From Minisyncoccia bacterium (GTDB lineage Bacteria > Patescibacteriota > Minisyncoccia > Phycocordibacterales > UBA1006), in the NCBI GenBank assembly GCA_044229075.1, contig JBGATS010000004.1, positions 878 through 64,877 of the forward strand: a DNA stretch of 64,000 nt, in the 5' to 3' direction. Position 1 is the first letter of the stretch. Every line of letters begins with the position of its first letter. A program made the position numbers and the translations under genes. Positions 25,379 to 58,963 of the stretch are shown in pieces. Under the pieces are notes generated by a model. That model was given only the letters and a program-made list of their open reading frames with translations, had not been told where the DNA came from and did no database searches.

Positions 25379-26227
25379 TCAAGACATAACATGGTCCCAA
25401 AAAACCTTATTGGGGAGTAATAAAATATTCATAAAAGCTTCCTCTTTTGTAATATTATTGAAAACTTCTTCCTTAAATGATTCTTTAATTCTTTCTTCTG
25501 GAGAAAAGGCGTAATCTTGATAAACATATTCAGTCATAATTCTTTGTTGAAAGTGAATATTTTTTGCGTGATAGGCTCCTGTGATTATTACAATTGTTTC
25601 AAAATTGCACACCTGACATTTGTTCTGTAAATGATATTCTAGGGAGTTAATTATTACGTCTTCACACCCATGCTTTATTTCATGATTAATCGTATTGCAA
25701 AAATCTTCTACTCCTTGACTTAAAAAGTCGGCAAAAACCTCTCGTATTTTTTCTTTCTGTACAGAAATTCTTTTTTTAATGAATAAGTATTGAAATAGTT
25801 CATTTAGATCGTGAGTATTCGGGTTTTTACTTTTAAAATTTTTAATAGAAAAATATTTGTTTTTGATTATATGCGTGAGTTTATTTATATACTCTTGAAA
25901 TAAACTGTTTTTTAATCCACGCTTATCGGCAATAACAATACTCGCTTGAATTTGCTGGAGAAACGCATTGTGTTGTTCGTTAAAAATACTTTTTAAAACA
26001 CTTATTCTATTTTCATGCTCCACTTTTACTGTGCCGCATTTGCAGTCATGTGTTTTTTGACTAATGAGCGCATCTTCAGCAATAACCAATGTCTTTTCTG
26101 ATTTTAAAATATCTCCAAAATCGTGAATTATCTCGGAAGTTATGTGCGGGTGAACTAATGACTGTTTTTTAAATCCAGCATAATCCGTGGCGTGTACAAC
26201 ACCTAATAAATAAATTTTTTTGTCCAT
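25379..26227 (-). CDS. TraB/GumN/Tiki-family protein with extra Cys motifs
   Basis: N-terminal KIYLLGVVHATD and C-terminal IVIITGAYHAKNI family motifs. Also CKCG and CQVC. Confidence 0.45.
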   Translation of the reverse strand: MDKKIYLLGVVHATDYAGFKKQSLVHPHITSEIIHDFGDILKSEKTLVIAEDALISQKTHDCKCGTVKVEHENRISVLKSIFNEQHNAFLQQIQASIVIADKRGLKNSLFQEYINKLTHIIKNKYFSIKNFKSKNPNTHDLNELFQYLFIKKRISVQKEKIREVFADFLSQGVEDFCNTINHEIKHGCEDVIINSLEYHLQNKCQVCNFETIVIITGAYHAKNIHFQQRIMTEYVYQDYAFSPEERIKESFKEEVFNNITKEEAFMNILLLPNKVFWDHVMS

Positions 26228-41145: not shown

Positions 41146-42069
41146 ATGAATATTCAGCAAGCAAAACAGCGCTTCTTGGAATATGTTGAAATAGAAAAAG
41201 GGCGAGCGCTCAATACTGTACGAAACTACGAACACTATCTGGATGTGTTTATTCGTCACACCGCTATTCATGATACCAGTGATATCACGGACGAGATTGT
41301 CCGAGAATTTCGTCTGTGGCTCAATCGTCAACCAGTACACACAAAAATTCGTGGAGAACAAAAAACAATGTCAAAAAAAACTCAGAATTATTATTTGATC
41401 GCCCTTCGTGCATTCCTAAAATATTTAGCACGACAAGAGATAAAAAGTCTTCCTGCAGATCGTATTGAACTTGCAAAAGTTCCTATGCGAGAACTCGACT
41501 TGATTACCGCTGCCGAACTCAATCGACTGATGGACGCACCCACAGGTAGTGATGAACGTGCGCTCCGTGATCGTGCGATCTTGGAATTACTCTTTTCGAC
41601 AGGATTGCGTGTATCAGAATTATGCAACCTTACCACCGACATTGATTTTACTACTGATGAATTTTCTGTTCGTGGTAAAGGTGGAAAAATTCGCGTTGTC
41701 TTTATCTCTGATTCTGCACGTACCGCAGTACAACAATATATCCAAAAGAGAAAAGATATGTCCGACGCATTGTTCGTTGCTGTGTCGGATGAAACACGAG
41801 GAAGAAAACCAGCTGACCGTGATGCCAGTCTGACCCGCAGGGCAATCCTGCGCATTGTAAAACACTATGCAATCAAGGCTGGGATTTCAAAAAAGGTGAC
41901 CCCTCACGTGATCAGACACTGCTTTGCAACGGGGTTATTATCCAATGGTGCCGATATCCGCAGTGTGCAAGTGATGTTAGGTCATGCGAACATTGCAACC
42001 ACCCAGGTTTATACTCATGTCACCGATAAACAACTTCGTGAAGTTCACAAAAAATTTCATGGGCGATAA
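41146..42069 (+). CDS. xerC: Tyrosine recombinase XerC/XerD family
   Basis: Catalytic R...HxxR...Y: LRVSEL, HVIRHCFATGLL, QVYTHV. Leaderless promoter TGCTATACT is 6 nt before the ATG. Confidence 0.85.
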   Translation: MNIQQAKQRFLEYVEIEKGRALNTVRNYEHYLDVFIRHTAIHDTSDITDEIVREFRLWLNRQPVHTKIRGEQKTMSKKTQNYYLIALRAFLKYLARQEIKSLPADRIELAKVPMRELDLITAAELNRLMDAPTGSDERALRDRAILELLFSTGLRVSELCNLTTDIDFTTDEFSVRGKGGKIRVVFISDSARTAVQQYIQKRKDMSDALFVAVSDETRGRKPADRDASLTRRAILRIVKHYAIKAGISKKVTPHVIRHCFATGLLSNGADIRSVQVMLGHANIATTQVYTHVTDKQLREVHKKFHGR

Positions 42070-44134: not shown

Positions 44135-45733
44135 ATGAAAAATCAGAAATATATTTTTATTACTGGTGGTGTGGTATCAGGATTGGGAAAAGGTATCATG
44201 GGGGCGAGTCTGGGCTTGATTCTCAAGTCCAGCGGATTTTCTGTCGAAGCCTTGAAAATGGATCCCTACCTCAACATTGATCCAGGGACGATGTCTCCCT
44301 ATGAACACGGCGAAGTGTATGTGTTGGACGATGGATCAGAAACAGATCTAGATCTGGGGCATTATGAACGATTTTTGGGAACCCATTTATCAGCACAGAG
44401 CACCCTCTCTGCAGGAAAAATTTATCACACTATTCTATCCCGTGAACGTGCGGGGGAATATTTAGGACACACGGTCCAATTGATTCCTCATATCACTGAT
44501 TTTATTAAAACTACGTACGCAACAACGAACAGTGATATTAAAATTATTGAGATTGGTGGTTCGACTGGTGATATGGAGGCAGAAGTATTTCTGGAAAGTC
44601 TCCGTCAGTTTAAACGCGATCACCCGGAACAAGTTCTCCATGTACATCTGGGATATATTCCCTACTTAGGCGTTTCTGGAGAATACAAGTCAAAACCCAT
44701 CCAAAACTCACTCCGTGAATTACTCCGCCTAGGAATTGCGCCAGACATCATCGCTGCACGATATGAACCAAACGATCACGAGGAGCTTCCAACATCACTG
44801 CTCGAAAAAATTGCACTCTTTGGAAACATTTCCCGCGATCGGGTAATTCCTTGTCCTGATCTGGAAAATATTTATCAAGTTCCTATTCATCTCTTGGAAA
44901 ATACTTCGATCATAACACCACTTACTGATTTTTGTGGACAGGAGCTCCACCCAACACTACCTCGATTCTTTTATGATTACCAAACCCTAAAAGATAAAAC
45001 ACTTCGCATCGCACTCGTTTCAAAATATACAAAACTTTCTGATGCGTACCTCAGTGTTATTGAATCAATCAAGATAGCTGCAACTGCGCACAACGTTGCA
45101 GCTACTACTACCATCGTTGATGCAGATGATCCTGATTTGTTACAGAAACTAGAACCGTTCGATGCAATTATTATCCCTGGAGGTTTTGGGTCACGTGGTA
45201 TGGAAGGAAAAATAAAAGCAATCACCTACGCTCGTACAACTGGAAAACCATTCCTTGGAATTTGCTTGGGATTACAATTAGCGGTCGTTGAGTTTGCTCG
45301 CGCATTTAGCCATCCGAACGCGGTGAGTCGCGAGATGGAAAACACGACAGAGTCTGATGCGTTCATTATTGATTTTATTCCAGAACAACTCAAGATCGAA
45401 CAAAAAGGCGGCACCATGCGACTGGGTACCTATCCTTGTACCCTGAAACCAGGAACATTGGTCCACGAATTATTCGGAACAGAACAAACCATAGAACGAC
45501 ACCGCCATCGGTTAGAGGTACAAAATGGGTATGAAGAAATTCTTGAAAAAAACAGAATGATTATTTCTGGAAAGTTTATCAAGCCAGATACTGATGATTA
45601 CCTAGTAGAAATGATTGAGCTTGATCGTTCGATCCATCCATACTTTGTCGCAACACAATCACATCCAGAATTCTTGTCACAGCCTGATCATCCGCATCCA
45701 CTCTTTCATGGATTGATCAAAGCGTGTTTGTAA
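44135..45733 (+). CDS. pyrG: CTP synthase
   Basis: Begins KYIFITGGVVSGLGKG. Contains a GATase domain with GICLGLQ. Confidence 0.95.
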   Translation: MKNQKYIFITGGVVSGLGKGIMGASLGLILKSSGFSVEALKMDPYLNIDPGTMSPYEHGEVYVLDDGSETDLDLGHYERFLGTHLSAQSTLSAGKIYHTILSRERAGEYLGHTVQLIPHITDFIKTTYATTNSDIKIIEIGGSTGDMEAEVFLESLRQFKRDHPEQVLHVHLGYIPYLGVSGEYKSKPIQNSLRELLRLGIAPDIIAARYEPNDHEELPTSLLEKIALFGNISRDRVIPCPDLENIYQVPIHLLENTSIITPLTDFCGQELHPTLPRFFYDYQTLKDKTLRIALVSKYTKLSDAYLSVIESIKIAATAHNVAATTTIVDADDPDLLQKLEPFDAIIIPGGFGSRGMEGKIKAITYARTTGKPFLGICLGLQLAVVEFARAFSHPNAVSREMENTTESDAFIIDFIPEQLKIEQKGGTMRLGTYPCTLKPGTLVHELFGTEQTIERHRHRLEVQNGYEEILEKNRMIISGKFIKPDTDDYLVEMIELDRSIHPYFVATQSHPEFLSQPDHPHPLFHGLIKACL

Positions 45734-48082: not shown

Positions 48083-48832
48083 TTATTGTTTTAATGAATT
48101 CCACATGATTTCAAAACTCTCTTTATGCATTTGAATGATAGTTGGGTCAGTTAAAACTGTTGCTGATGTAGGCTCGAGTAATCTATGTATCACTACTTTT
48201 TGAGGAATGATCACAAGATTAGTAGAAAGTGTTGTATTTTTTGGTAAGAAACGAATTTGCATATTATAATTTCTTTCAAACTGTTTATGTTTTCTAGCTG
48301 TTTCAGATTCAATAATTAATAATCGTATATTGATATTAAGCTTTGCACGGCGTGACATAAAATCTTCAAAGAATTCTTTATCTTTATCATACCATTCATG
48401 CTGATTTGAGATAACACAGTAATCCTGATGTGGTTGAATATTATTTAAGAGGTCATCATATACAGAACGTATAGCTTGGGTACCTGTATAAATTTTTGTA
48501 TCACCTGTTTTATTCTTAGTTTGATACTGTGCTAATAAGATTGGTAATATTCCTTCAAATGTTTTTGCCCGAGCGTTTAATAATTGCGATAGTTTCTGCG
48601 GATCTTCAACGATTAAAAACGATTTTAATCCCCTAACATCTTCAGAAACAAGGCCTTTTTGTTTTAACGACTCGATAATATGATAAATTGTAGTTCTTTT
48701 AATCTCTGTAACACGAGAAATTTTTAAAACCGTTGCTTCTCCTAACTGTAAAATCGCCAAATAAACCTTTGCTTCGAGCTCTGAAAGCCCAATATCGGTT
48801 ATTATTTTATAAATAGAATTGTTTTGTTTCAT
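48083..48832 (-). CDS. TrmB-family transcriptional regulator
   Basis: LSELEAKVYLAILQLGEATVLKISRVTEIKRTTIYHIIESLKQKGLV. Confidence 0.65.
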   Translation of the reverse strand: MKQNNSIYKIITDIGLSELEAKVYLAILQLGEATVLKISRVTEIKRTTIYHIIESLKQKGLVSEDVRGLKSFLIVEDPQKLSQLLNARAKTFEGILPILLAQYQTKNKTGDTKIYTGTQAIRSVYDDLLNNIQPHQDYCVISNQHEWYDKDKEFFEDFMSRRAKLNINIRLLIIESETARKHKQFERNYNMQIRFLPKNTTLSTNLVIIPQKVVIHRLLEPTSATVLTDPTIIQMHKESFEIMWNSLKQ

Positions 48833-49957: not shown

Positions 49958-51667
49958 TTACTTCTTCACACCATGTTTCACGTGTAACTTCTTCACTTCT
50001 TCTTGTTCTTCTTGTTCCTTTCGTTCCTTTCCTGCTTCTCCGAGCTTTTTAAGATCTACATCTGAAAGTTTTTCAAATTCACCAACACGATTCGAAAGAT
50101 ATTCAATCGTGTTTTTTTCTGGATCTTCCAGAACTTCCTCGAGAAGTGCGTGTAACATCCATCCCATTCGTGGGCCTGGTTTCACGTGTAACTTGTTCAT
50201 CAGGTAATTTCCATCTACTTTCAATTGTGAAACACTGATTGGGTCACGCAGGCATTCCTCGATCATCGCAAAATATTTACGTAATCGATACGGTGCTTCG
50301 GTTTTATTCATTCCGACACGATCACATTCGCGGATCTGCATGAGCTGCCAGATTGGATGCTGAGTTGTTTCTCCTTCTCCTAAATTAGGAGAAGGTTGGG
50401 ATGAGGTCGTAACATTCGCAATCATCCTTCTTACAGCAGACAATGTAATTGATTCAGTATCACTGAAAAACATGTGCCATCTGACAAATTTCACAACCAG
50501 TTCCGTCTCGGCTTTTGGAAATTTCAATCGTTCCATTATTTTCTGCGCAATGCGTGCACCAACTACCTCGTGTCCATAAAATGTATAAGCTTTTTTACTA
50601 CCAGGTCGACGAGTTTTTGGTTTTCCAATATCGTGAAACAATGCTGCGAGTCGTATATGAAATGAGTATTTTTTATCAGCCGCATGTTGCAAAGCATGAA
50701 CTAGGTGATCAAACACATCATAAATATGTACACCGCCCTGAATACAACCAATACTTGGAATGATTTCAGGTAAAATAACGTCCAACAAACCTAATTGTTT
50801 CATGTGAAACAATGCAATGGCCGGGCTGTCCGAATTTATAATCTTGATAAACTCATCACGGATCCGTTCTGCAGAAATATTTTTAAGTAATTCTCGAGTT
50901 TCAATAATCGCATTCATTGTTTCATATGAAACAGTAAAACCAAGCTGCGCTGAAAATCTGATTGCCCGCATAATACGAAGCGCGTCTTCCCTGAATCGTT
51001 CAGTTGGGTCACCAACGGCAATAATCATTTGTTTTTCAATCGCCTGTTTCCCGTGAAACGGATCTATCAGCTGGAATGTTTCAAGGTCAATTGCGATTGC
51101 ATTCATCGTAAAATCACGTCGTGACAAATCGTCATAAATAGTGTCGCTAAAGGACACACTGTCAGGATGTCGGTTATCCGAATACGCCCCTTCTAATCGA
51201 TATGGAGTTATTTGAATGTCTCTGACAGAACTATCAATCAATTCATCTTCAAACACAATTGAAACAGTTCCAAACACGTTTTCATACACAACCTTAAAAT
51301 CGTTATCTTCAAACAGTTTCACAATTTGTTCAGGTTTTGCATTGGTGGTAATATCCCAGTCTTTTGGTTTATGTATACCTAGTGAAGCCTTGGTGAAATC
51401 TGGTGAAACATTATTTTTAATTCGTTTTTCTGGTAAATCTAAATCATCTCCTGATACTTCTGATGGTTTGAGTATTTGTTCGAACACTTGTTCTGGTTTC
51501 ACACTATCACCAGTTTCGAGTCGCGAAGAAATTGAAGAATTATTAGAAAAAACTATTTGGGAAATTAAGAGATCCCGCACACACCCACCAACAAGAAACG
51601 CTTCAAATCCAGCGGTTTTTAATGTTTCTGTTACACGTGAAACGTTTTTGGGAACAATAAAATTCAT
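49958..51667 (-). CDS. cca: tRNA nucleotidyltransferase (CCA-adding enzyme, HD-domain type) with a head-domain insertion of about 60 aa and a K/E-rich C-terminal tail
   Basis: GGCVRDLLI ... KPKDWDITT are separated by an insert. HD domain RLAALFHDIGKP. Six parS-like sites lie inside the CDS. Confidence 0.85.
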   Translation of the reverse strand: MNFIVPKNVSRVTETLKTAGFEAFLVGGCVRDLLISQIVFSNNSSISSRLETGDSVKPEQVFEQILKPSEVSGDDLDLPEKRIKNNVSPDFTKASLGIHKPKDWDITTNAKPEQIVKLFEDNDFKVVYENVFGTVSIVFEDELIDSSVRDIQITPYRLEGAYSDNRHPDSVSFSDTIYDDLSRRDFTMNAIAIDLETFQLIDPFHGKQAIEKQMIIAVGDPTERFREDALRIMRAIRFSAQLGFTVSYETMNAIIETRELLKNISAERIRDEFIKIINSDSPAIALFHMKQLGLLDVILPEIIPSIGCIQGGVHIYDVFDHLVHALQHAADKKYSFHIRLAALFHDIGKPKTRRPGSKKAYTFYGHEVVGARIAQKIMERLKFPKAETELVVKFVRWHMFFSDTESITLSAVRRMIANVTTSSQPSPNLGEGETTQHPIWQLMQIRECDRVGMNKTEAPYRLRKYFAMIEECLRDPISVSQLKVDGNYLMNKLHVKPGPRMGWMLHALLEEVLEDPEKNTIEYLSNRVGEFEKLSDVDLKKLGEAGKERKEQEEQEEVKKLHVKHGVKK

Positions 51668-51803
51668 AAATTACAATAACTTTAACTTTATCCAAAATAA
51701 TTTGTAACTTTTTGTTTCATGTGAAACAACTATTCATACTAATCAACCAAATAGTTAATACTTGACATATTAATATAAATATGCTAAAATTAGAATAAAA
51801 AAT

Positions 51804-51959
51804 ATGGAGAAAATAATAAATTGGCTGTGGAGAGCAGCCAGATGGGGTGGATGGTTTTCACTTCATCAATTATTAAAACTGATGTCCGCTCTTCTATTAT
51901 GGGCATCAGAACTTGCCACAACAGCATCAAAAGCTTGTGGCAGGAAAATCGGTATCTAA
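51804..51959 (+). CDS. Candidate small ORF (51 aa, Trp/Arg-rich amphipathic), convergent with pspC
   Basis: Preceded by TTGACA-N17-TGCTAAAAT at 51762-51790. MEKIINWLWRAARWGGWFSLHQLLKLMSALLLWASELATTASKACGRKIGI. Below the ORF-track size cutoff. Confidence 0.3.
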   Translation: MEKIINWLWRAARWGGWFSLHQLLKLMSALLLWASELATTASKACGRKIGI

Positions 51960-51974
51960 ATGGTTACCGATTTT

Positions 51975-52274
51975 TTATTTTTCTTTCTTTTCGTTTGATT
52001 CATCTGGAATATCTTTTTTTATGTCTTTTTCTTCTGTCTCTATTTCTTTTTCAATACTTTCTTTGTCTTTTAATTTTTCAGAGTCAAGTGATGTAGTTTT
52101 TGGTATAACAATCCAACAAATAATGTAAAACAAAATTCCTGCAAAAAGGGTTAGGATCGTAAAAAGAACGTATCCCAAGCGAATAACTGTAGTATCAATA
52201 TCAAAATATTCTGCAAAACCAGCAAGAACACCTGCAACGACTTTATCAGAATTTGAACGATATAGTTTTTTCAT
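51975..52274 (-). CDS. PspC-domain membrane protein
   Basis: MKKLYRSNSDKVVAGVLAGFAEYFDIDTTVIRLGYVLFTILT. The track ORF extends spuriously over the tRNA. Confidence 0.7.
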   Translation of the reverse strand: MKKLYRSNSDKVVAGVLAGFAEYFDIDTTVIRLGYVLFTILTLFAGILFYIICWIVIPKTTSLDSEKLKDKESIEKEIETEEKDIKKDIPDESNEKKEK

Positions 52275-52474
52275 ATGAATGATCATTATTAATTTTGAAT
52301 AAATATAATATATAGACAAAAAACTTCTCGAGGTTTGAATATTATACTCATACGAATACGAATTATTTCTACCGAAATCTAGTAAACTTCTACAAAAACA
52401 AAAGAAAGTTTTTGTTGTGGTAATAAAAATTTTCTCGAAGAATAAATTAATACTTTTTGTTCCACATATTTTTG

Positions 52475-52546
52475 TGCACCTGCCAGGACTCGAACCCAGA
52501 ATAACAGTTCCGAAGACTGCTGTGATATCCATTTCACCACAGGTGC
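52475..52546 (-). tRNA. tRNA-Arg (anticodon UCG)
   Basis: Minus-strand cloverleaf: acceptor GCACCTG/CAGGTGC, anticodon stem GCAGT/ACTGT with loop CTTCGGA, T-loop TTCGAGT. 72 nt. Confidence 0.65.
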
Positions 52547-52653
52547 AACAAAAGAAATAATAGCATAGATTTATAAAAAAATCAATTTATATAAGACATC
52601 GAGGTATTACACGTAGACAGAATTATTCAAGGACGTAAAAATTAATTACCCTA

Positions 52654-53175
52654 TTATCGGACAGAAAGATGTTCAATTCTCTCGAAAAGGTATTGATTAG
52701 TCTCTTTATCGAGATATACACCAATCCCGTCAATTTGCCAGCGTGTTTCACGGGAAACATTCCTGCTAGAAAGATATATTTCGGCTGTTTTTATGATTCG
52801 ATTCACCTTGAAATAGGATATATTTTGAAAAGGATTTTTTATTTTCCGATATTCTCTATCAAATTGCTCCCGAACATTTTCTGGTTGAGGTTTTTCTAAA
52901 CTAGTTTCACGGGAAACATTCTTATCGCGAAAAGAATATATCTCTCCGTTCATTGTTAACAGTTTTTTTGTAACAAGAGTTTCATGTGAAACAGTAATTG
53001 TCTTTACCTCGAAAAAATAATAACAATTATTTAATAATGCAATGATATCAATTTCACCAAATCTTGTAGAAAAATTTCTTTCAATAATCGAAAAACCTTG
53101 TTTCACGAGAAACATTTCCGCCTGATCTTCACCATTTTTCCCAATTTTTTGTTTTATTGAAGTAAAATTTTTCAT
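52654..53175 (-). CDS. yraN: YraN-family (UPF0102) endonuclease-like protein with a C-terminal extension. Contains 4 parS-like sites.
   Basis: GKNGEDQAEMFLVKQGFSIIERNFSTRFGEIDIIAL...YFFEVKT. Confidence 0.65.
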   Translation of the reverse strand: MKNFTSIKQKIGKNGEDQAEMFLVKQGFSIIERNFSTRFGEIDIIALLNNCYYFFEVKTITVSHETLVTKKLLTMNGEIYSFRDKNVSRETSLEKPQPENVREQFDREYRKIKNPFQNISYFKVNRIIKTAEIYLSSRNVSRETRWQIDGIGVYLDKETNQYLFERIEHLSVR

Positions 53176-53279
53176 AAATATTTGTGTTTCATATGAAACA
53201 TATATTATAAAAACTGATTATTTGATCAAAAATTATGTTTTCAATTTATTTTCACATATATAGTGTTTCACGTGAAACA

Positions 53280-53640
53280 TATATGATATACACAAGTATA
53301 TAAACTATTATAAAAAGACATTTTTTTCAGAAAAAACTATATGTAGCAAGGGTTTTTCTGATTATATTAGTATGACAGATAATTATTATCGACACAACAC
53401 TCCTCTCAAAAAGGACAATATTGACTGTCTTTTATAAACATATCCCACTGGTTTATCCACAGTTTTATTGAAAAATAAGCTTCAAAAAACACATCACGAT
53501 GAAAAAAATCATTTTTTGCAAATTATTTTAGACAACAGATTTTTTGTGTTTTCTTTTAAAAGGACACGTCCAAACCTATTGTATTGTGGATAACTCATTA
53601 ATTACAAAAAACTACTCAAATTGAGTAGTTTTTTGTAAAA
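53280..53640. promoter_or_regulatory. AT-rich intergenic region with DnaA boxes: candidate oriC
   Basis: Perfect TTATCCACA at 53453-53461. Perfect inverse TGTGGATAA at 53585-53593. TTATCGACA at 53387-53395. ATATCCCAC at 53441-53449. Flanked on the left by the parS array. Confidence 0.45.
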
Positions 53641-53641
53641 A

Positions 53642-53905
53642 TTATTTGAGGCCGATCTTCTTGAGAAGAACTTCGTATGCATCAAAATTTTTCTTTTTAA
53701 TGTATCCGAGAAGCTTTCGTCGTTCTGCAACCATTGCAATGAGTCCCCGACGAGAGTGGATGTCTTTTTTGTGGAGTTGCAAATGAGCGGTTAATTGATT
53801 GATTTGCTCACTGAGTAATGCAACCTGAACTTCTGGAGAACCGGTATTTGTTTCCGCCCCACCAAAGTCTTTCACAATTTTTGTTTTTGCTTGTTTTGTT
53901 AACAT
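53642..53905 (-). CDS. rpsO: 30S ribosomal protein S15
   Basis: MLTKQAKTKIVKDFGGAETNTGSPEVQVALLSEQINQLTAHLQLHKKDIHSRRGL. Confidence 0.9.
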   Translation of the reverse strand: MLTKQAKTKIVKDFGGAETNTGSPEVQVALLSEQINQLTAHLQLHKKDIHSRRGLIAMVAERRKLLGYIKKKNFDAYEVLLKKIGLK

Positions 53906-54036
53906 GAGGGTGTTATAGCATATTTTGAAACAAAAAGCAAGAATTTTATTCTCTGTATTTGGAAAATACCCCCACCAACATCATCTCTATATATACCTTG
54001 CAAAAGACCGATAACCAGGATATACTCGATACCATT

Positions 54037-54107
54037 GCAGGCATGGTTTAGTGGTAAAATACCTCCTTGCCAAGGAGGAGTCGGGGGTTCGATTCCCCCT
54101 GCCTGCA
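54037..54107 (+). tRNA. tRNA-Gly (anticodon GCC)
   Basis: Acceptor GCAGGCA/TGCCTGC, anticodon stem CCTCC/GGAGG with loop TTGCCAA, T-arm GGGGG-TTCGATT-CCCCC. Promoter TTGCAA-N17-TATACT upstream. Confidence 0.8.
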
Positions 54108-54302
54108 CAAACACAAATTTATATACATTTTAAAAACTTAATTTTTAGATTTCCAGGAAAAATCAATTGAAAATTTTATGGATTTTTAGCATATATTACC
54201 TATATACTATTTGTCGTTGTAAGAACTTTATTGTAGTTAAGGTGAGAATTTAAGACGAAATTATTGACAAAATTATAGAAGTATGCTAATATTAAAATAA
54301 AA

Positions 54303-55319
54303 ATGGGCGAAAGAAAAAATAAACACATCATATTGATGGTGTGTATAATTATGACTTTTTTGTTATTTTTAGTAAAAAATAACAAAAAAGATGTTGCAGA
54401 ACCAATTATTTCTGTAACAAAAAAATCTCCAGGAATTAAACGGGTGGAGATAGCGGGAAGTCGCTCATTTCTCAAGAAACGACCGTTGGGTAATTTTAAA
54501 TTCAAGGACAGTATTCCTGAACCTGAATTTAAAAACCTCGTCATGCTCGGTGAGATTGGGAAGTTTGGCTCAGATAATTTCGAAGGAAAAATTATCCGCA
54601 GTCTTCGCTTTCAAAATCTTACCAGGGAAGTTGAGAGGAGGTATAACCTTCCTGATAATATTCTCTTGGCAATGATCGTACAGGAATCTTCCGGTGCAGA
54701 CCTATTACCAAACGGGTTGGGTGATGGGGGGTTCGGTCTGTGTCACATGCAACCAATTGTAGCGCGGGAATTTGGGCTTTATACCTACAAAGCATGTAGT
54801 GCTATGGTTTGTAACGGAAAAGACAAAAGATCTTGCCTACGAAACGGTAAGCGGGTTGACCACGCATCGGAGCTGAGTGTGTTTATCTTAAAAAACAGGC
54901 TCGGCAGAAAAGGTGTTTACCATGTTGATGATAGGTTACACCCTATCTACAACATAGATGCCGCTGGGAGGATGATTGCCTACCACATAGCGGCAGAAAA
55001 ACAACTCCCAGGCATGGGACCCCTACGCACAGCCATTTGTCGGTATGCAGGGTCAACCAATTACTGTGCTTATTGGGATGCAGTGCGTATGGTAATGAAA
55101 AAATTAAATAACCCCGCTTATATTAAAAAGGTGGAGGCGTTATTTAACAATTCAAACAAAAATTTACAAATTAACGGGAAACCTGGTAATTTTCAAAAAT
55201 ATATCGAGGTTTCCCAGCAGCAACTGTATAATTATGGGCTATCAGAGTATGAAAAATTACCATACTGGTCTATAAAAAATACAGATATTGTACAAAAAAC
55301 CTACAAAAAATATATATAG
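54303..55319 (+). CDS. Membrane-anchored lytic transglycosylase (SLT domain)
   Basis: LLAMIVQESSGADLLPNGLGDGGFGLCHMQP. Confidence 0.65.
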   Translation: MGERKNKHIILMVCIIMTFLLFLVKNNKKDVAEPIISVTKKSPGIKRVEIAGSRSFLKKRPLGNFKFKDSIPEPEFKNLVMLGEIGKFGSDNFEGKIIRSLRFQNLTREVERRYNLPDNILLAMIVQESSGADLLPNGLGDGGFGLCHMQPIVAREFGLYTYKACSAMVCNGKDKRSCLRNGKRVDHASELSVFILKNRLGRKGVYHVDDRLHPIYNIDAAGRMIAYHIAAEKQLPGMGPLRTAICRYAGSTNYCAYWDAVRMVMKKLNNPAYIKKVEALFNNSNKNLQINGKPGNFQKYIEVSQQQLYNYGLSEYEKLPYWSIKNTDIVQKTYKKYI

Positions 55320-55496
55320 TAGGTATTGCTCCCTTTTTCAGAAGGGGGCTTTTTTATCTCATAAAATGAATCTCTCAGATGCAGAACACTTAGTGTATCA
55401 ACTTGAGCTTTGCATTAATTTATCCGTACAAAACAACGAAATATTTAAAGTATAAAAATACTGTTATTAAAATAAAAATCCTGCTATACTTTCACC

Positions 55497-56963
55497 ATGA
55501 AACAAGTCATCATTTTTCACGACGCCTTCTCAAATCCACTTTCTGCCTGGTATCAATCAGTACAGTCGATCATTCCTGATGGGTACACTTTTCTATCTCC
55601 GGAGCTTCCTGGCGGAACAGAACAAGGAATGACTTTTTGGATGCAAACATTTGAAAAAGTTCGCTCAGGATTCAACGACTCGACAATTGTTATCACGCAT
55701 GGAATAAGTACGTTTGCATGGCTCCGTTTTTTGGAAACCATGACTCAGCCAGTGCGCATGACTATTATTGTCGCCGGGTGTGACCAAGTTCCCGGACATC
55801 AAGTATTGGCACCTATTGCAAAAAGTTTTCTAACGAATCCGTTTAATTATTCACTCGTCACGAAAAATGCGGGGACTGTTATCCATATCACCAACACGTC
55901 TGATCCTTTTATATCGCCGACTCTTTCACGAGATTTACAATCTCATATATCAGGAGAAATGATTACCTTATCAGGGGTAGGACATTTCACGGAAACAACA
56001 GAAACGGAACTCATCCAAACACTACAATCTATTTTCCAAAAAACTACTGCTCATGATGCAGAGGTTGCACGTTTAAAACTGGAGCATCGCGCTCAGGCTG
56101 AAAAAGAAGAGCTTGCAAAATCACTTGTTCCCGGAGTTATTACCTATGACAGCACAAAGGCTCAGAGTTTGTCTGGGTATCAAGGGAAAGTTATCTCTGA
56201 ATTATTAGCAGAAGCACGTGAAGAAGATCTCTTGAAAAAAGAGCAGAGCCCAAAAAGTATAAAAAATGTTTTCTATATTTTGGGAACAATACTATTTTTA
56301 ATCGCTGGTGCATGGTTTATCATTTCCGCACTACAACGATACCAACCAAAAATTGCTCCAATAATCAACCGAGGCACACAATCGTATCAAAACACGATCA
56401 TGCAAGTTTCTGAATTTACCTCTTTTGATATTACCAACCTTGCAAGTTATGAAATTCTTAAAAATTTCAACGCACTTCAACAAAAAGAAATTCCTGAAAA
56501 ATCATTTTTTGCAATTGTTCCAAAAGTTAATGAAAAAATTCCACCGCTCGAAACTTTTTTTACGTCATTAGACATTCGGTCTCCTCTTGGATTTACCTCA
56601 AAGTCTCGTGACTACCTATATAGTTATTACAAACCAGAAGGAATTTCTGAGAAAATACCATTTCTCCTGATTCGTTTTGATGGTTATGAAATAATGCATA
56701 CACTCCTCTCTGGATGGGAACCACGAATGATTATCGAAACGAGAACCTTGTTTCAAAAAAAACAAGCTGAATTCGTAACCCAGCCCGAAGCATTTCCTTT
56801 TGAAGATGTGGTAATCAATAATATTGTACTCCGAAAAGGGTCACTCTCTACATCGGAATCACTATATTATGGATTTATTACGAATACTGTCCTGTTAATC
56901 ACTCCTAATCCAGCTGTTTTAGATCCTATTGTTCGATCGATGAATAATACTACTGCGCAATAA
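55497..56963 (+). CDS. Hypothetical fusion protein: N-terminal alpha/beta-hydrolase-like (RBBP9/YdeN-like) region, a central TM, and a C-terminal domain of unknown function
   Basis: IIFHDAFSNPLSAWYQ...IVITHGISTFAWLRFLE. TM NVFYILGTILFLIAGAWFIISAL. Leaderless promoter TGCTATACT is 6 nt before the ATG. Confidence 0.45.
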   Translation: MKQVIIFHDAFSNPLSAWYQSVQSIIPDGYTFLSPELPGGTEQGMTFWMQTFEKVRSGFNDSTIVITHGISTFAWLRFLETMTQPVRMTIIVAGCDQVPGHQVLAPIAKSFLTNPFNYSLVTKNAGTVIHITNTSDPFISPTLSRDLQSHISGEMITLSGVGHFTETTETELIQTLQSIFQKTTAHDAEVARLKLEHRAQAEKEELAKSLVPGVITYDSTKAQSLSGYQGKVISELLAEAREEDLLKKEQSPKSIKNVFYILGTILFLIAGAWFIISALQRYQPKIAPIINRGTQSYQNTIMQVSEFTSFDITNLASYEILKNFNALQQKEIPEKSFFAIVPKVNEKIPPLETFFTSLDIRSPLGFTSKSRDYLYSYYKPEGISEKIPFLLIRFDGYEIMHTLLSGWEPRMIIETRTLFQKKQAEFVTQPEAFPFEDVVINNIVLRKGSLSTSESLYYGFITNTVLLITPNPAVLDPIVRSMNNTTAQ

Positions 56964-57006
56964 TTATTATTGTACAATTATAAAAATGTGCTACACTTAC
57001 TATCTC

Positions 57007-57375
57007 ATGAAATCTATGAACCAAAAAACACTCGCGGAGCTGAAAAACCTTCTCGAAGCAGAAAAAGCTTCGCTTTTTGAAGAACTTTCACATATTGGAA
57101 CCCAAAACCCGCAAACTGGTGATTGGCAGGCGATACCTGTTGAAACTGACGGGGAAGGCGAATCAGACTATAGCGACCAAGCTGACTACATCGAGGAGTT
57201 TGGATCTCGAGTAGCACGATTGGCAGAAATGGAAAAACAGTATAGTGAAGTACTCGCCGCACTCGACAGAATAGATCAGGGTGTATATGGTGTCTGTGAA
57301 AAATCAGGGCAACCAATTGAACTTGACCGACTCCTCGCTAATCCTACTGCACGAACCTGTAAAGCAATGATGTGA
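57007..57375 (+). CDS. DksA/TraR-family protein (2-Cys variant)
   Basis: Coiled-coil N-terminus. C-terminus GVYGVCEKSGQPIELDRLLANPTARTC. Extended -10 TGCTACACT is 9 nt before the ATG. Confidence 0.5.
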   Translation: MKSMNQKTLAELKNLLEAEKASLFEELSHIGTQNPQTGDWQAIPVETDGEGESDYSDQADYIEEFGSRVARLAEMEKQYSEVLAALDRIDQGVYGVCEKSGQPIELDRLLANPTARTCKAMM

Positions 57376-57439
57376 TATTAAACCAGTTATATGGTTTTTT
57401 ATTTTCAATTTTTTATTTTGTTGTTATAATCAACACACT

Positions 57440-58963
57440 ATGCTCTCTACATTTTCTCGTGTGTATTCTGCGCAACCGTTTCAGTTACAAGGACACCTCG
57501 TCACGGTTGAAGTTGATATTACTAATGGTAGTCATCATTTCAGTATTATTGGACTCCCTGACAAAGCGGTTGAAGAGTCACGTGACCGTGTATCCAGTGC
57601 TATAAAAAACTCTGGATTCATTTCGCCAAAACAAGAAAATTTCAAAACTGTTGTTTCACTTGCTCCCGCAGAACTAAAAAAAGAGGGTTCCTATTTTGAT
57701 CTTGCAATTGCGTTGGGGTACCTCCTTTCATCACATGCAATCGATTTTGATCCAGAGAAAAAACTCTTCCTAGGTGAATTATCGCTCAATGGTCAAGTAG
57801 GAAAAGTTTTCGGAGTATTGCCCTTGGTTCAGTTTGCAAAACAATCTGGTTTTACCGAGGTGTTTGTCCCAAGGGAAAACGCCCAAGAAGCTGCACTGGT
57901 TGGTGGAATTACTATCTATACAGTTGATACCTTAAAACAAGTTATCGACCACCTGACAGAATCAGAACATCTCCCACCAGAACCACAAACAGAAATTAAT
58001 TTCACTGATCGTGCGGAAATTGTGACTGATTTTTTCGATATCAAGGGTCAAGAAATTGCAAAACGAGGACTCGAAATTGCAGCTGCTGGTGGACACAACA
58101 TTGTCATGTATGGACCACCAGGAACAGGGAAAACAATGCTTGCCCGGGCGTTCACAGGAATACTTCCCATACTCTCTCTTGATGAAGCTTTGGAGGTTAC
58201 CGGTATTCATAGTATTTCCGGAAAACTCGATCGTCCACTGATTATCCATCCACCGTTCCGTAGTCCTCACCACACCTCCAGTTATGTGTCGCTCATTGGT
58301 GGTGGCGCTGTCCCAAAACCTGGCGAGGTAACGCTCGCACATCGTGGTGTATTATTTCTTGATGAGTTTCCAGAATTTGAAACACGTGTATTAGAATCCA
58401 TGCGCCAACCACTGGAGGATCGTGTGGTAAATATCTCACGAGCCAAGGGAAATGCAACGTTTCCATCACAATTTATACTGGTCGCAGCAATGAACCCGTG
58501 TCCATGTGGAAATGCAGGATCATTACATAAAAAATGTATTTGTACTCAAAATGATATCGCGCGCTATGGACGGAAAATTTCTGGGCCAATTATGGATCGT
58601 ATTGATTTATGGATTCCGGTAGAACATATTGATTATGAGAAACTTGGGAACATTCATGATGCAGAAAAAAGTGAGCTCATAAAAGAACGCGTAAAACAAG
58701 CGCGCGATCAGCAACACACAAGATTTGATACGTATAAGAAATTAAACGCACATATGCAATCGCGCGACGTAGAGCAGTTAGCTATTACCGAAGGTGCAAA
58801 ACAAACATTGAACAAGAGTGCCCAAATAATGAAACTGTCGCCGCGCGCATATCACCGTGTTATAAAACTCGCACGCACAATTGCAGATCTCGATAGGCGT
58901 GAAATAATTACAGAGGATCATATTTTAGAAGCGTTGCAGTATCGACCAAAACAACAGTATTAA
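57440..58963 (+). CDS. comM: Mg-chelatase-like AAA+ ATPase ComM/YifB
   Basis: Lon-like N-terminus. Walker A MYGPPGTGKTMLARAF. Has RGVLFLDEFPEF and a C-terminal ChlI domain. Confidence 0.9.
   Translation: MLSTFSRVYSAQPFQLQGHLVTVEVDITNGSHHFSIIGLPDKAVEESRDRVSSAIKNSGFISPKQENFKTVVSLAPAELKKEGSYFDLAIALGYLLSSHAIDFDPEKKLFLGELSLNGQVGKVFGVLPLVQFAKQSGFTEVFVPRENAQEAALVGGITIYTVDTLKQVIDHLTESEHLPPEPQTEINFTDRAEIVTDFFDIKGQEIAKRGLEIAAAGGHNIVMYGPPGTGKTMLARAFTGILPILSLDEALEVTGIHSISGKLDRPLIIHPPFRSPHHTSSYVSLIGGGAVPKPGEVTLAHRGVLFLDEFPEFETRVLESMRQPLEDRVVNISRAKGNATFPSQFILVAAMNPCPCGNAGSLHKKCICTQNDIARYGRKISGPIMDRIDLWIPVEHIDYEKLGNIHDAEKSELIKERVKQARDQQHTRFDTYKKLNAHMQSRDVEQLAITEGAKQTLNKSAQIMKLSPRAYHRVIKLARTIADLDRREIITEDHILEALQYRPKQQY

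Follow-up and report, generated by a model that had tools for sequence, protein, structure and literature searches.

A dense cluster of parS-like palindromes in cca and yraN as a predicted ParB-loading centromere of a Paceibacteria chromosome

In ParABS systems, ParB dimers nucleate at parS sites, bind cytidine triphosphate (CTP), close as clamps and slide along the DNA; the partition complex so formed serves as the handle on which segregation acts and, in many species, as the site at which SMC is loaded (PMC7333895, PMC7022226). The chromosomal parS consensus, TGTTNCACGTGAAACA, is common to Firmicutes, Actinobacteria, Thermus and many Proteobacteria (PMC7022226). Reviews put the number of parS sites at 1 to 20-23 per genome and raise the question of their clustering (PMC7333895): Bacillus subtilis has 10, eight of them in the origin domain (PMC7022226 Table 1), Caulobacter crescentus has 5 in the origin domain (PMC7022226 Table 1; PMC5815017), and Myxococcus xanthus has 22-24, with a 3.12-kb fragment, upstream of parAB and about 30 kb from ori, that holds a stretch of 22 repeats (PMC3899335, PMC3778016). 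Here we analyze a 64-kb stretch (the window) of contig JBGATS010000004.1, from an uncultivated bacterium, in which 13 palindromes of the parS type lie within 3.3 kb, most of them inside two genes, cca and yraN, and we weigh the prediction that together they form the centromere of a chromosome of the Paceibacteria (Patescibacteria, candidate phyla radiation).

The array shares with the Spo0J-type sites of B. subtilis the same 16-nucleotide (nt) palindrome, natural copies of which tolerate one or two mismatches, and like those sites it would be expected to provide ParB-loading and SMC-recruitment sites near the origin. The B. subtilis sites, however, are spread over a large origin-proximal domain. 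Here 13 occupy 3.3 kb and just two genes account for ten; a parAB operon is absent from the window and, in every relative, from the 10 kb around the array. The chromosomal array of M. xanthus, which is close to the origin, has a similar or higher density, so array density alone is not unprecedented: the 13 sites in 3.3 kb reported in a preliminary description of this DNA stand, but the exceptional density ascribed to them was overstated, given the 22 sites in 3.12 kb of M. xanthus (PMC3899335). That array adjoins parAB and consists of a GC-rich variant, TGTTCCACGTGGAACG; in contrast, the present one is unlinked to parAB, has the AT-rich canonical form, and is written into the coding sequence of housekeeping genes at a position that is kept across many related genomes. 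In C. crescentus, a single ParB complex forms on several neighbouring sites near the origin, but these are fewer and lie beside parAB. Plasmid centromere arrays, such as sopC of F (12 tandem 43-base-pair repeats) and parS of P1, are regular, non-coding and located beside the par operon; they likewise gather many ParB-type sites in a short stretch. The present sites, in contrast, are unevenly spaced, lie in frame within genes and have nothing but the 16-mer in common. The sites of Noc, a ParB paralogue of Firmicutes, are related palindromes (consensus ATTTCCCGGGAAAT) with ATTTCC arms, spread across the chromosome outside the terminus region; the arms found here are those of parS, GTTTCA and TGAAAC. 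What is known, then, is ParB loading at parS and the existence of dense chromosomal arrays; what is distinctive is that the sites lie in frame in two housekeeping genes, at a conserved locus, with no parAB linkage and with a cluster of DnaA boxes adjacent. Because the ParB-parS mechanism is textbook knowledge, the surprise is limited to these features.

The window contains 13 matches to TGTTTCACGTGAAACA at three or fewer mismatches, all within 49974-53279 (Table 1), at the coordinates given in the preliminary description, and the other 60.7 kb contain none. Dinucleotide-preserving shuffles of the window yield on average 0.67 matches and never more than 3. A looser search with a 14-mer returns the same 13 as the sole matches with zero or one mismatch, together with nine further matches in the window, all with 2. 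The right-hand extension of the contig, 6.5 kb past the end of the window, holds neither parS nor ParB. The consensus of the 13 sites is identical to the published TGTTNCACGTGAAACA (PMC7022226), which bears out the earlier identification of the motif as canonical parS. One copy is perfect and four have a single mismatch; the 16-mers that are perfect palindromes number three (50918, 53185 and 53264) rather than the five first counted, as TGTTTCATGTGAAACA has a TG centre that is not self-complementary. Three of the sites have CCCG or CGGG at the centre. When the 13 sites were aligned with 14 nt of flank, conserved information was limited to the 14-16-nt core and the flanks were unrelated; the spacing between site centres is irregular, from 75 to 1031 nt. 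Unrelated flanks and irregular spacing indicate a protein-binding motif, not a repeat element, and on these grounds we rejected a tandem array, a mobile element and a segmental duplication as well. A plasmid-type iteron centromere of the sopC/parC kind does not fit either: the spacing is too variable, the flanks are not conserved and no par genes are present.

Of the 13 sites, cca contains six and yraN four, and the remaining three are between genes, in line with the earlier count of at least ten inside open reading frames (ORFs). Sites inside genes have a precedent in B. subtilis, where some parS sites lie within genes, spo0J itself among them. We recoded cca and yraN synonymously 3000 times, with codon usage taken from 25 other genes of the window, and obtained a mean of 2.6 in-gene sites and a maximum of 6, compared with the 10 observed; those 25 genes (27 kb) contain no site. 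Because the observed number exceeds that of every recoding, codon choice is tuned to the motif, and the same test applied to cca alone also finds its codons so tuned. All ten in-gene sites have frame offsets of 1 or 2, two of the three possible frames. The third frame reads TGT TTC ACG TGA, an in-frame stop, and the palindromy of the motif makes this true of both strands. As only two frames are usable, two families of peptide words recur, V-S-x-E-T in one frame and F/L-H-x-K-Q/H/P in the other; the words first noticed in the two proteins are all present in the CCA and YraN translations (Table 1).

The effect reaches beyond codons to amino acids. At the site positions, the residues of distant CCA orthologues are unrelated, for example KIEEKT at the position of TVSYET, and the CCA and YraN sequences have drifted toward words compatible with parS. 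The recoding excess and the intergenic copies show that the DNA sequence itself is under selection, apart from what it encodes. Alignment of YraN with its relatives reveals an internal insert of about 45 amino acids; in the family this insert is hypervariable, lies between the EVK strand and the C-terminal helix, and is rich in words of the VSRET and VSHET type. The site-bearing extra sequence of YraN is therefore this internal insert and not, as first described, a C-terminal extension. Among relatives, the length of YraN correlates with its number of sites (Spearman rho 0.54). The K/E-rich tail of CCA, which ends in KLHVKH, had been called lineage-specific: it is indeed missing from matches to distant homologues, which stop near residue 524, but it is common to all aligned close relatives and so is not particular to this genome.

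To place the array in its lineage, we collected 80 loci of species-representative genomes, three loci of close relatives and then 20 further metagenome loci. Clusters of parS recur in the yraN-cca block of dozens of related genomes. Counted at two or fewer mismatches over 55 Paceibacteria loci, the block holds 122 sites in 173 kb (0.705 per kb) and the flanks 14 sites in 693 kb (0.020 per kb), a 35-fold difference in density; in the relatives, as in the window, the sites are concentrated in the block. A similar density elsewhere, which the preliminary description named as grounds for dropping the centromere interpretation, is thus not seen in the other 60.7 kb of the window or in the flanks of relatives. 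Close relatives have arrays of 16 (L002), 14 (L084), 11 (L085) and 9 (L083) sites, and the further metagenome relatives repeat the pattern with 5-10 sites each. CCA homologues down to about 57% identity share the peptide words, and these come from Patescibacteria of the Paceibacteria/Parcubacteria type (Nomurabacteria, Kaiserbacteria, Taylorbacteria, Adlerbacteria, Paceibacterota). No sites turned up around the more divergent cca homologues, those of Spirochaetota, Clostridium and candidate-phyla bacteria of more remote kinship; the matches in that batch were confined to two short contigs of the Paceibacteria type (L063 and L067).

Individual sites are less stable than the locus. Their positions are only partly conserved in more distant genomes, and we rejected the idea that all cca sites are ancient: those that recur among species-level relatives are the N-terminal VS[RH]VT site and the VS[HY]ET site only. 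In L083, whose CCA is 77% identical, the cca sites have been lost except for one remnant with 3 mismatches; nine sites are kept in yraN, its upstream region and a neighbouring ORF of 588 amino acids (L083 5396-7800 and 10001-11485), indicating that the array can move between host genes. Sites turn over at a locus that persists. One site stands outside the block: AGTTACACGTGAAACA, with 2 mismatches, occurs at L084 14275 and L085 14208, where a Fic-domain gene ends some 2.5 kb downstream of cca, and has no counterpart in the stretch of the window that was compared.

Beside the array, at a distance of 150-300 nt, lies a cluster of DnaA boxes. The only two perfect TTATCCACA boxes of the window, at 53453 (+) and 53585 (-), both fall in this intergenic region, the former as the last of the three direct box-like 9-mers of a 36-nt element, TGTCTTTTATAAACATATCCCACTGGTTTATCCACA (Table 1). 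The element is conserved: in 37 of the 55 related loci it contains a perfect box, whose position with respect to yraN is unchanged, and in relatives it is often followed by an inverted box. The cluster lies upstream of yraN and, in most relatives, between yraN and cca. When GC skew was pooled over 37 loci, it was negative to the left of the element and positive to the right, and the difference persisted when ORFs were split by coding strand. The right-minus-left skew was positive in 23 of 26 loci, which are not independent trials because they share synteny and ancestry. The switch in sign of the pooled skew at the element suggests a replication origin; the skew of the window itself, which has no such switch, and the lack of a dnaA gene within 10 kb in any locus examined count against one.

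Gene order around the element is also suggestive. In most relatives (for instance L010, L017 and L018, at about 14-21 kb), cca is followed on its own strand by a block comprising rpsO and genes for a serine hydrolase, a dksA-like protein and comM. In the window (53642-58963) and in L084 (4002-7835), this block is inverted and located across the DnaA-box element instead. This arrangement looks like the outcome of inversions centred on the element, as would be expected of an origin. All parS sites of the window fall on one side of the element because yraN has flipped as well. We regard the segment 53426-53593 as a candidate oriC or DnaA-binding cluster, one that strengthens the centromere reading without proving proximity to the origin.

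The protein that would bind the sites was sought with Pfam, with phmmer using Spo0J and Soj sequences, and with a hidden Markov model (HMM) built from 60 real ParBs. In agreement with the preliminary description, none of these found a ParB or ParA gene in the window, and no SMC gene was found there either; nor were there matches to ParB or ParA in the window and 85 loci (1.35 Mb) or in 20 further metagenome loci, and an NCBIfam scan of ten Pfam-negative ORFs returned no partition-related proteins. Since ParB is missing from the window and from all fetched loci, parB is not linked to the array within 10 kb in these genomes. We infer that a cognate ParB exists from the match of the motif to the target consensus of the ParB family; it is very unlikely that an unrelated protein would have come to recognize the same 16 positions. 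The literature that we searched held nothing on parS, ParB or partition, or on DnaA boxes or origins, in Patescibacteria, the candidate phyla radiation or Parcubacteria.

Taken together, the motif, its confinement to 3.3 kb, the tuning of codons, the clusters in relatives and the adjoining DnaA boxes support the centromere reading with which the preliminary description began, with ParB supplied by inference. We assign a probability of about 80% to the reading that the 13 palindromes are chromosomal parS sites and together the predicted ParB-loading centromere of this Paceibacteria chromosome. Several observations weigh against it. No ParB or ParA was found in about 1.5 Mb (the window plus 104 fetched loci), and a protein-database search with a consensus ParB returned thermophilic Clostridia only, so that no ParB came to light for the wider group either; any generic seed would rank well-sampled groups first. 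The central CACGTG varies in several sites (CATATG, CATGTG, CACGGG, CACGAG). In 16 of the 55 related loci the block has no site with two or fewer mismatches, so that the array is common and not universal. Finally, the cumulative skew of the window itself falls monotonically, with neither a minimum nor a sign switch at 53.4 kb, over a right flank that is short and mixed for such a reading.

One rival explanation of the palindromes, favoured by the absence of ParB from the window and the fetched loci, is that they are operators of a locally encoded protein, either a TrmB-family regulator (48083-48832) or YraN itself, that controls cca and yraN or forms a centromere independent of ParB. In the window, as in many relatives, a TrmB-like gene is indeed only a few kb away from cca, and two or three sites overlap the upstream regions of cca and yraN. 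However, 10 of the 13 sites are deep within coding sequence, an unexpected place for operators, a regulator would need far fewer than the 9-16 sites of these arrays, and the motif fits the ParB-specific consensus at essentially all 16 positions, a convergence that would be very unlikely (PMC7022226); we consider this explanation improbable. Still less probable is that the DNA words are a by-product of protein constraint, or of internal duplication, in CCA and YraN, with no function at the DNA level. Protein sequence does contribute, as the recoded genes still average 2.6 matches and some words fall in conserved protein motifs such as FLVKQGF in YraN and L-x-VKPG in CCA, but the excess of the 10 observed sites over all 3000 recodings largely refutes it. 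Moreover, three sites, including the sole perfect copy, are intergenic, one DNA motif appears in two unrelated proteins and two reading frames, distant orthologues differ at the same positions (the KIEEKT of the above comparison), and L083 lost its cca sites even though 77% of the protein is identical.

It could also be supposed that the motif is a dispersed repeat (of the repetitive extragenic palindrome, REP, or miniature inverted-repeat transposable element, MITE, type), an uptake sequence or some other genome-wide signal that happens to be concentrated here, given that our view of the genome consists of 64 kb and an extension of 6.5 kb. The emptiness of the other 60.7 kb of the window, the 0.020 sites per kb over 693 kb of flanks in relatives, the lack of any conserved flank past the 16-mer and the location of sites in frame inside conserved genes all speak against this, and we give it the least credence of the three. 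REP or MITE elements and DNA uptake sequences were rejected as classes for the same array on finding no copies in the window outside the 3.3 kb, conservation of the core only, and 10 of 13 sites in frame in genes.

If the sites are a parS centromere, as we favour, the locus could work as follows. CTPase dimers of ParB (Spo0J) would bind each 16-mer, close as CTP-bound clamps and slide onto flanking DNA, and 13 loading sites in 3.3 kb would yield one dense partition complex over the yraN-cca region of about 3.5 kb. This complex would single out origin-proximal DNA for segregation, together with ParA should the organism possess it, and would probably load SMC too; ParB binding, complex formation, SMC loading and the identity of the origin are predicted here from the DNA. 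Most sites would fall in coding DNA because the genome is gene-dense and its intergenic regions are small. Selection on the DNA motif fixes synonymous codons and has altered amino acids at tolerant positions of CCA; the variable YraN insert has become filled with words encoded by parS, and the CCA tail and surface positions would absorb further sites. Single sites are gained and lost over time, and the cluster stays at yraN-cca, beside the DnaA boxes and possibly the replication origin.

A bolder version, which we hold tentatively and at somewhat less than even odds, is that origin and centromere form one compact module throughout a broad lineage of Paceibacteria, unlinked to dnaA and parAB: the DnaA-box cluster would be oriC, parS would be written into the flanking housekeeping genes, and the YraN insert and the CCA tail would persist at least in part as carriers of parS. 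If true, this would map origin and centromere for the first time within the candidate phyla radiation and would show clearly how a cis-acting DNA element can drive insertions in proteins. Patescibacteria have tiny cells and genomes and almost none have been cultured, Minisyncoccus archaeiphilus being a cultured relative in the Paceibacteria class (PMC12281837); for them the locus predicts a handle for chromosome segregation and possibly the place where replication starts. The locus is also a clean natural example of overlapping codes, in which a DNA-binding motif limits frame, codons and even amino acids in two genes of essential type. In practice, the yraN-cca module of parS and DnaA boxes could anchor the orientation and checking of Paceibacteria assemblies and coverage-based estimates of replication rate.

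Table 1. Coordinates of the parS-like sites, DnaA boxes and genes of the array region (positions in the window; aa, amino acids)
Feature	Position	Strand	Mismatches or size	Context
parS-like site TGTTTCACGTGTAACT	49974..49989		2 mismatches	cca codons 560-565 (KLHVKH), C-terminal tail
parS-like site GGTTTCACGTGTAACT	50178..50193		3 mismatches	cca codons 492-497 (KLHVKP)
parS-like site TGTTTCATGTGAAACA	50796..50811		1 mismatch	cca codons 286-291 (LFHMKQ)
parS-like site TGTTTCATATGAAACA	50918..50933		2 mismatches, perfect palindrome	cca codons 245-250 (TVSYET)
parS-like site TGTTTCCCGTGAAACG	51045..51060		2 mismatches	cca codons 203-208 (PFHGKQ)
parS-like site TGTTACACGTGAAACG	51629..51644		2 mismatches	cca codons 8-13 (NVSRVT); most widely kept position in orthologues
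parS-like site TGTTTCATGTGAAACA	51713..51728		1 mismatch	intergenic, 45 nt upstream of cca start; overlaps a weak -35-like hexamer
parS-like site TGTTTCACGGGAAACA	52744..52759		1 mismatch	yraN codons 139-144 (NVSRET)
parS-like site AGTTTCACGGGAAACA	52903..52918		2 mismatches	yraN codons 86-91 (NVSRET), within hypervariable internal insert
parS-like site AGTTTCATGTGAAACA	52978..52993		2 mismatches	yraN codons 61-66 (TVSHET), start of insert
parS-like site TGTTTCACGAGAAACA	53099..53114		1 mismatch	yraN codons 21-26 (MFLVKQ)
parS-like site TGTTTCATATGAAACA	53185..53200		2 mismatches, perfect palindrome	intergenic, 9 nt upstream of yraN start codon
parS site TGTTTCACGTGAAACA, perfect consensus	53264..53279		0 mismatches	intergenic, 88 nt upstream of yraN start
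DnaA-box element TGTCTTTTATAAACATATCCCACTGGTTTATCCACA	53426..53461	+	36 nt	three direct box-like 9-mers, the last a perfect TTATCCACA
Second perfect DnaA box (TGTGGATAA on the + strand)	53585..53593	-		inverted relative to the first
cca, CCA-adding tRNA nucleotidyltransferase	49958..51667	-	569 aa	Pfam PolyA_pol, PolyA_pol_RNAbd, HD, tRNA_NucTran2_2 and homologues; six sites
PspC-domain membrane protein gene	51975..52277	-		Pfam; no sites
tRNA-Arg (TCG)	52474..52546	-		tRNA scan; no sites
yraN, UPF0102 nuclease-like protein	52654..53175	-	173 aa	Pfam UPF0102 at residues 15-60 only; four sites
rpsO	53642..53905	-		beyond a 466-nt intergenic region from yraN

According to the ORF listing, Pfam and tRNA scans, the genes of this region (cca, PspC, tRNA-Arg, yraN and rpsO) are all on the minus strand. 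A scan of the intergenic regions for non-coding RNA placed tRNA-Arg alone above threshold, the other matches being sub-threshold ones to the rpsO terminator hairpin. The CCA of the window has an insert of about 60 amino acids (51370-51560, residues ~38-100) that is missing in most relatives; at this insertion point several relatives encode the parS word NVSRE (for example the site at L084 10120), and the window keeps only NNVSPD, apparently a decayed site.

Further afield, an ORF of 282 amino acids without a family (25379-26227, minus strand) has a sub-threshold Pfam match to the Ndc80/HEC kinetochore domain (E 4.6e-4, 20.3 bits against a cutoff of 25.1), probably by chance. Past the right end of the window, two very large genes of 940 and 1193 amino acids, with no Pfam family, occupy L082 1746-8232 (about 62.2-68.6 kb in window coordinates). 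The TrmB-family winged-helix regulator gene (48083-48832, minus strand) also occurs within a few kb of cca in L004, L012, L014, L042, L052, L083 and L084, with two copies in L083; its product is the only plausible local candidate for a different binder of the palindromes. The CTP synthase gene pyrG is 1-6 kb away from the array in three loci, the window (44135-45733, plus strand), L002 (8111-9721) and L083 (15523-17265), a proximity that is curious given that ParB is a CTPase and that may be plain synteny. A gene for a tyrosine recombinase of the XerC/XerD type is found about 8 kb from the array (41146-42069, plus strand) and is syntenic in L084 (17200-18147).

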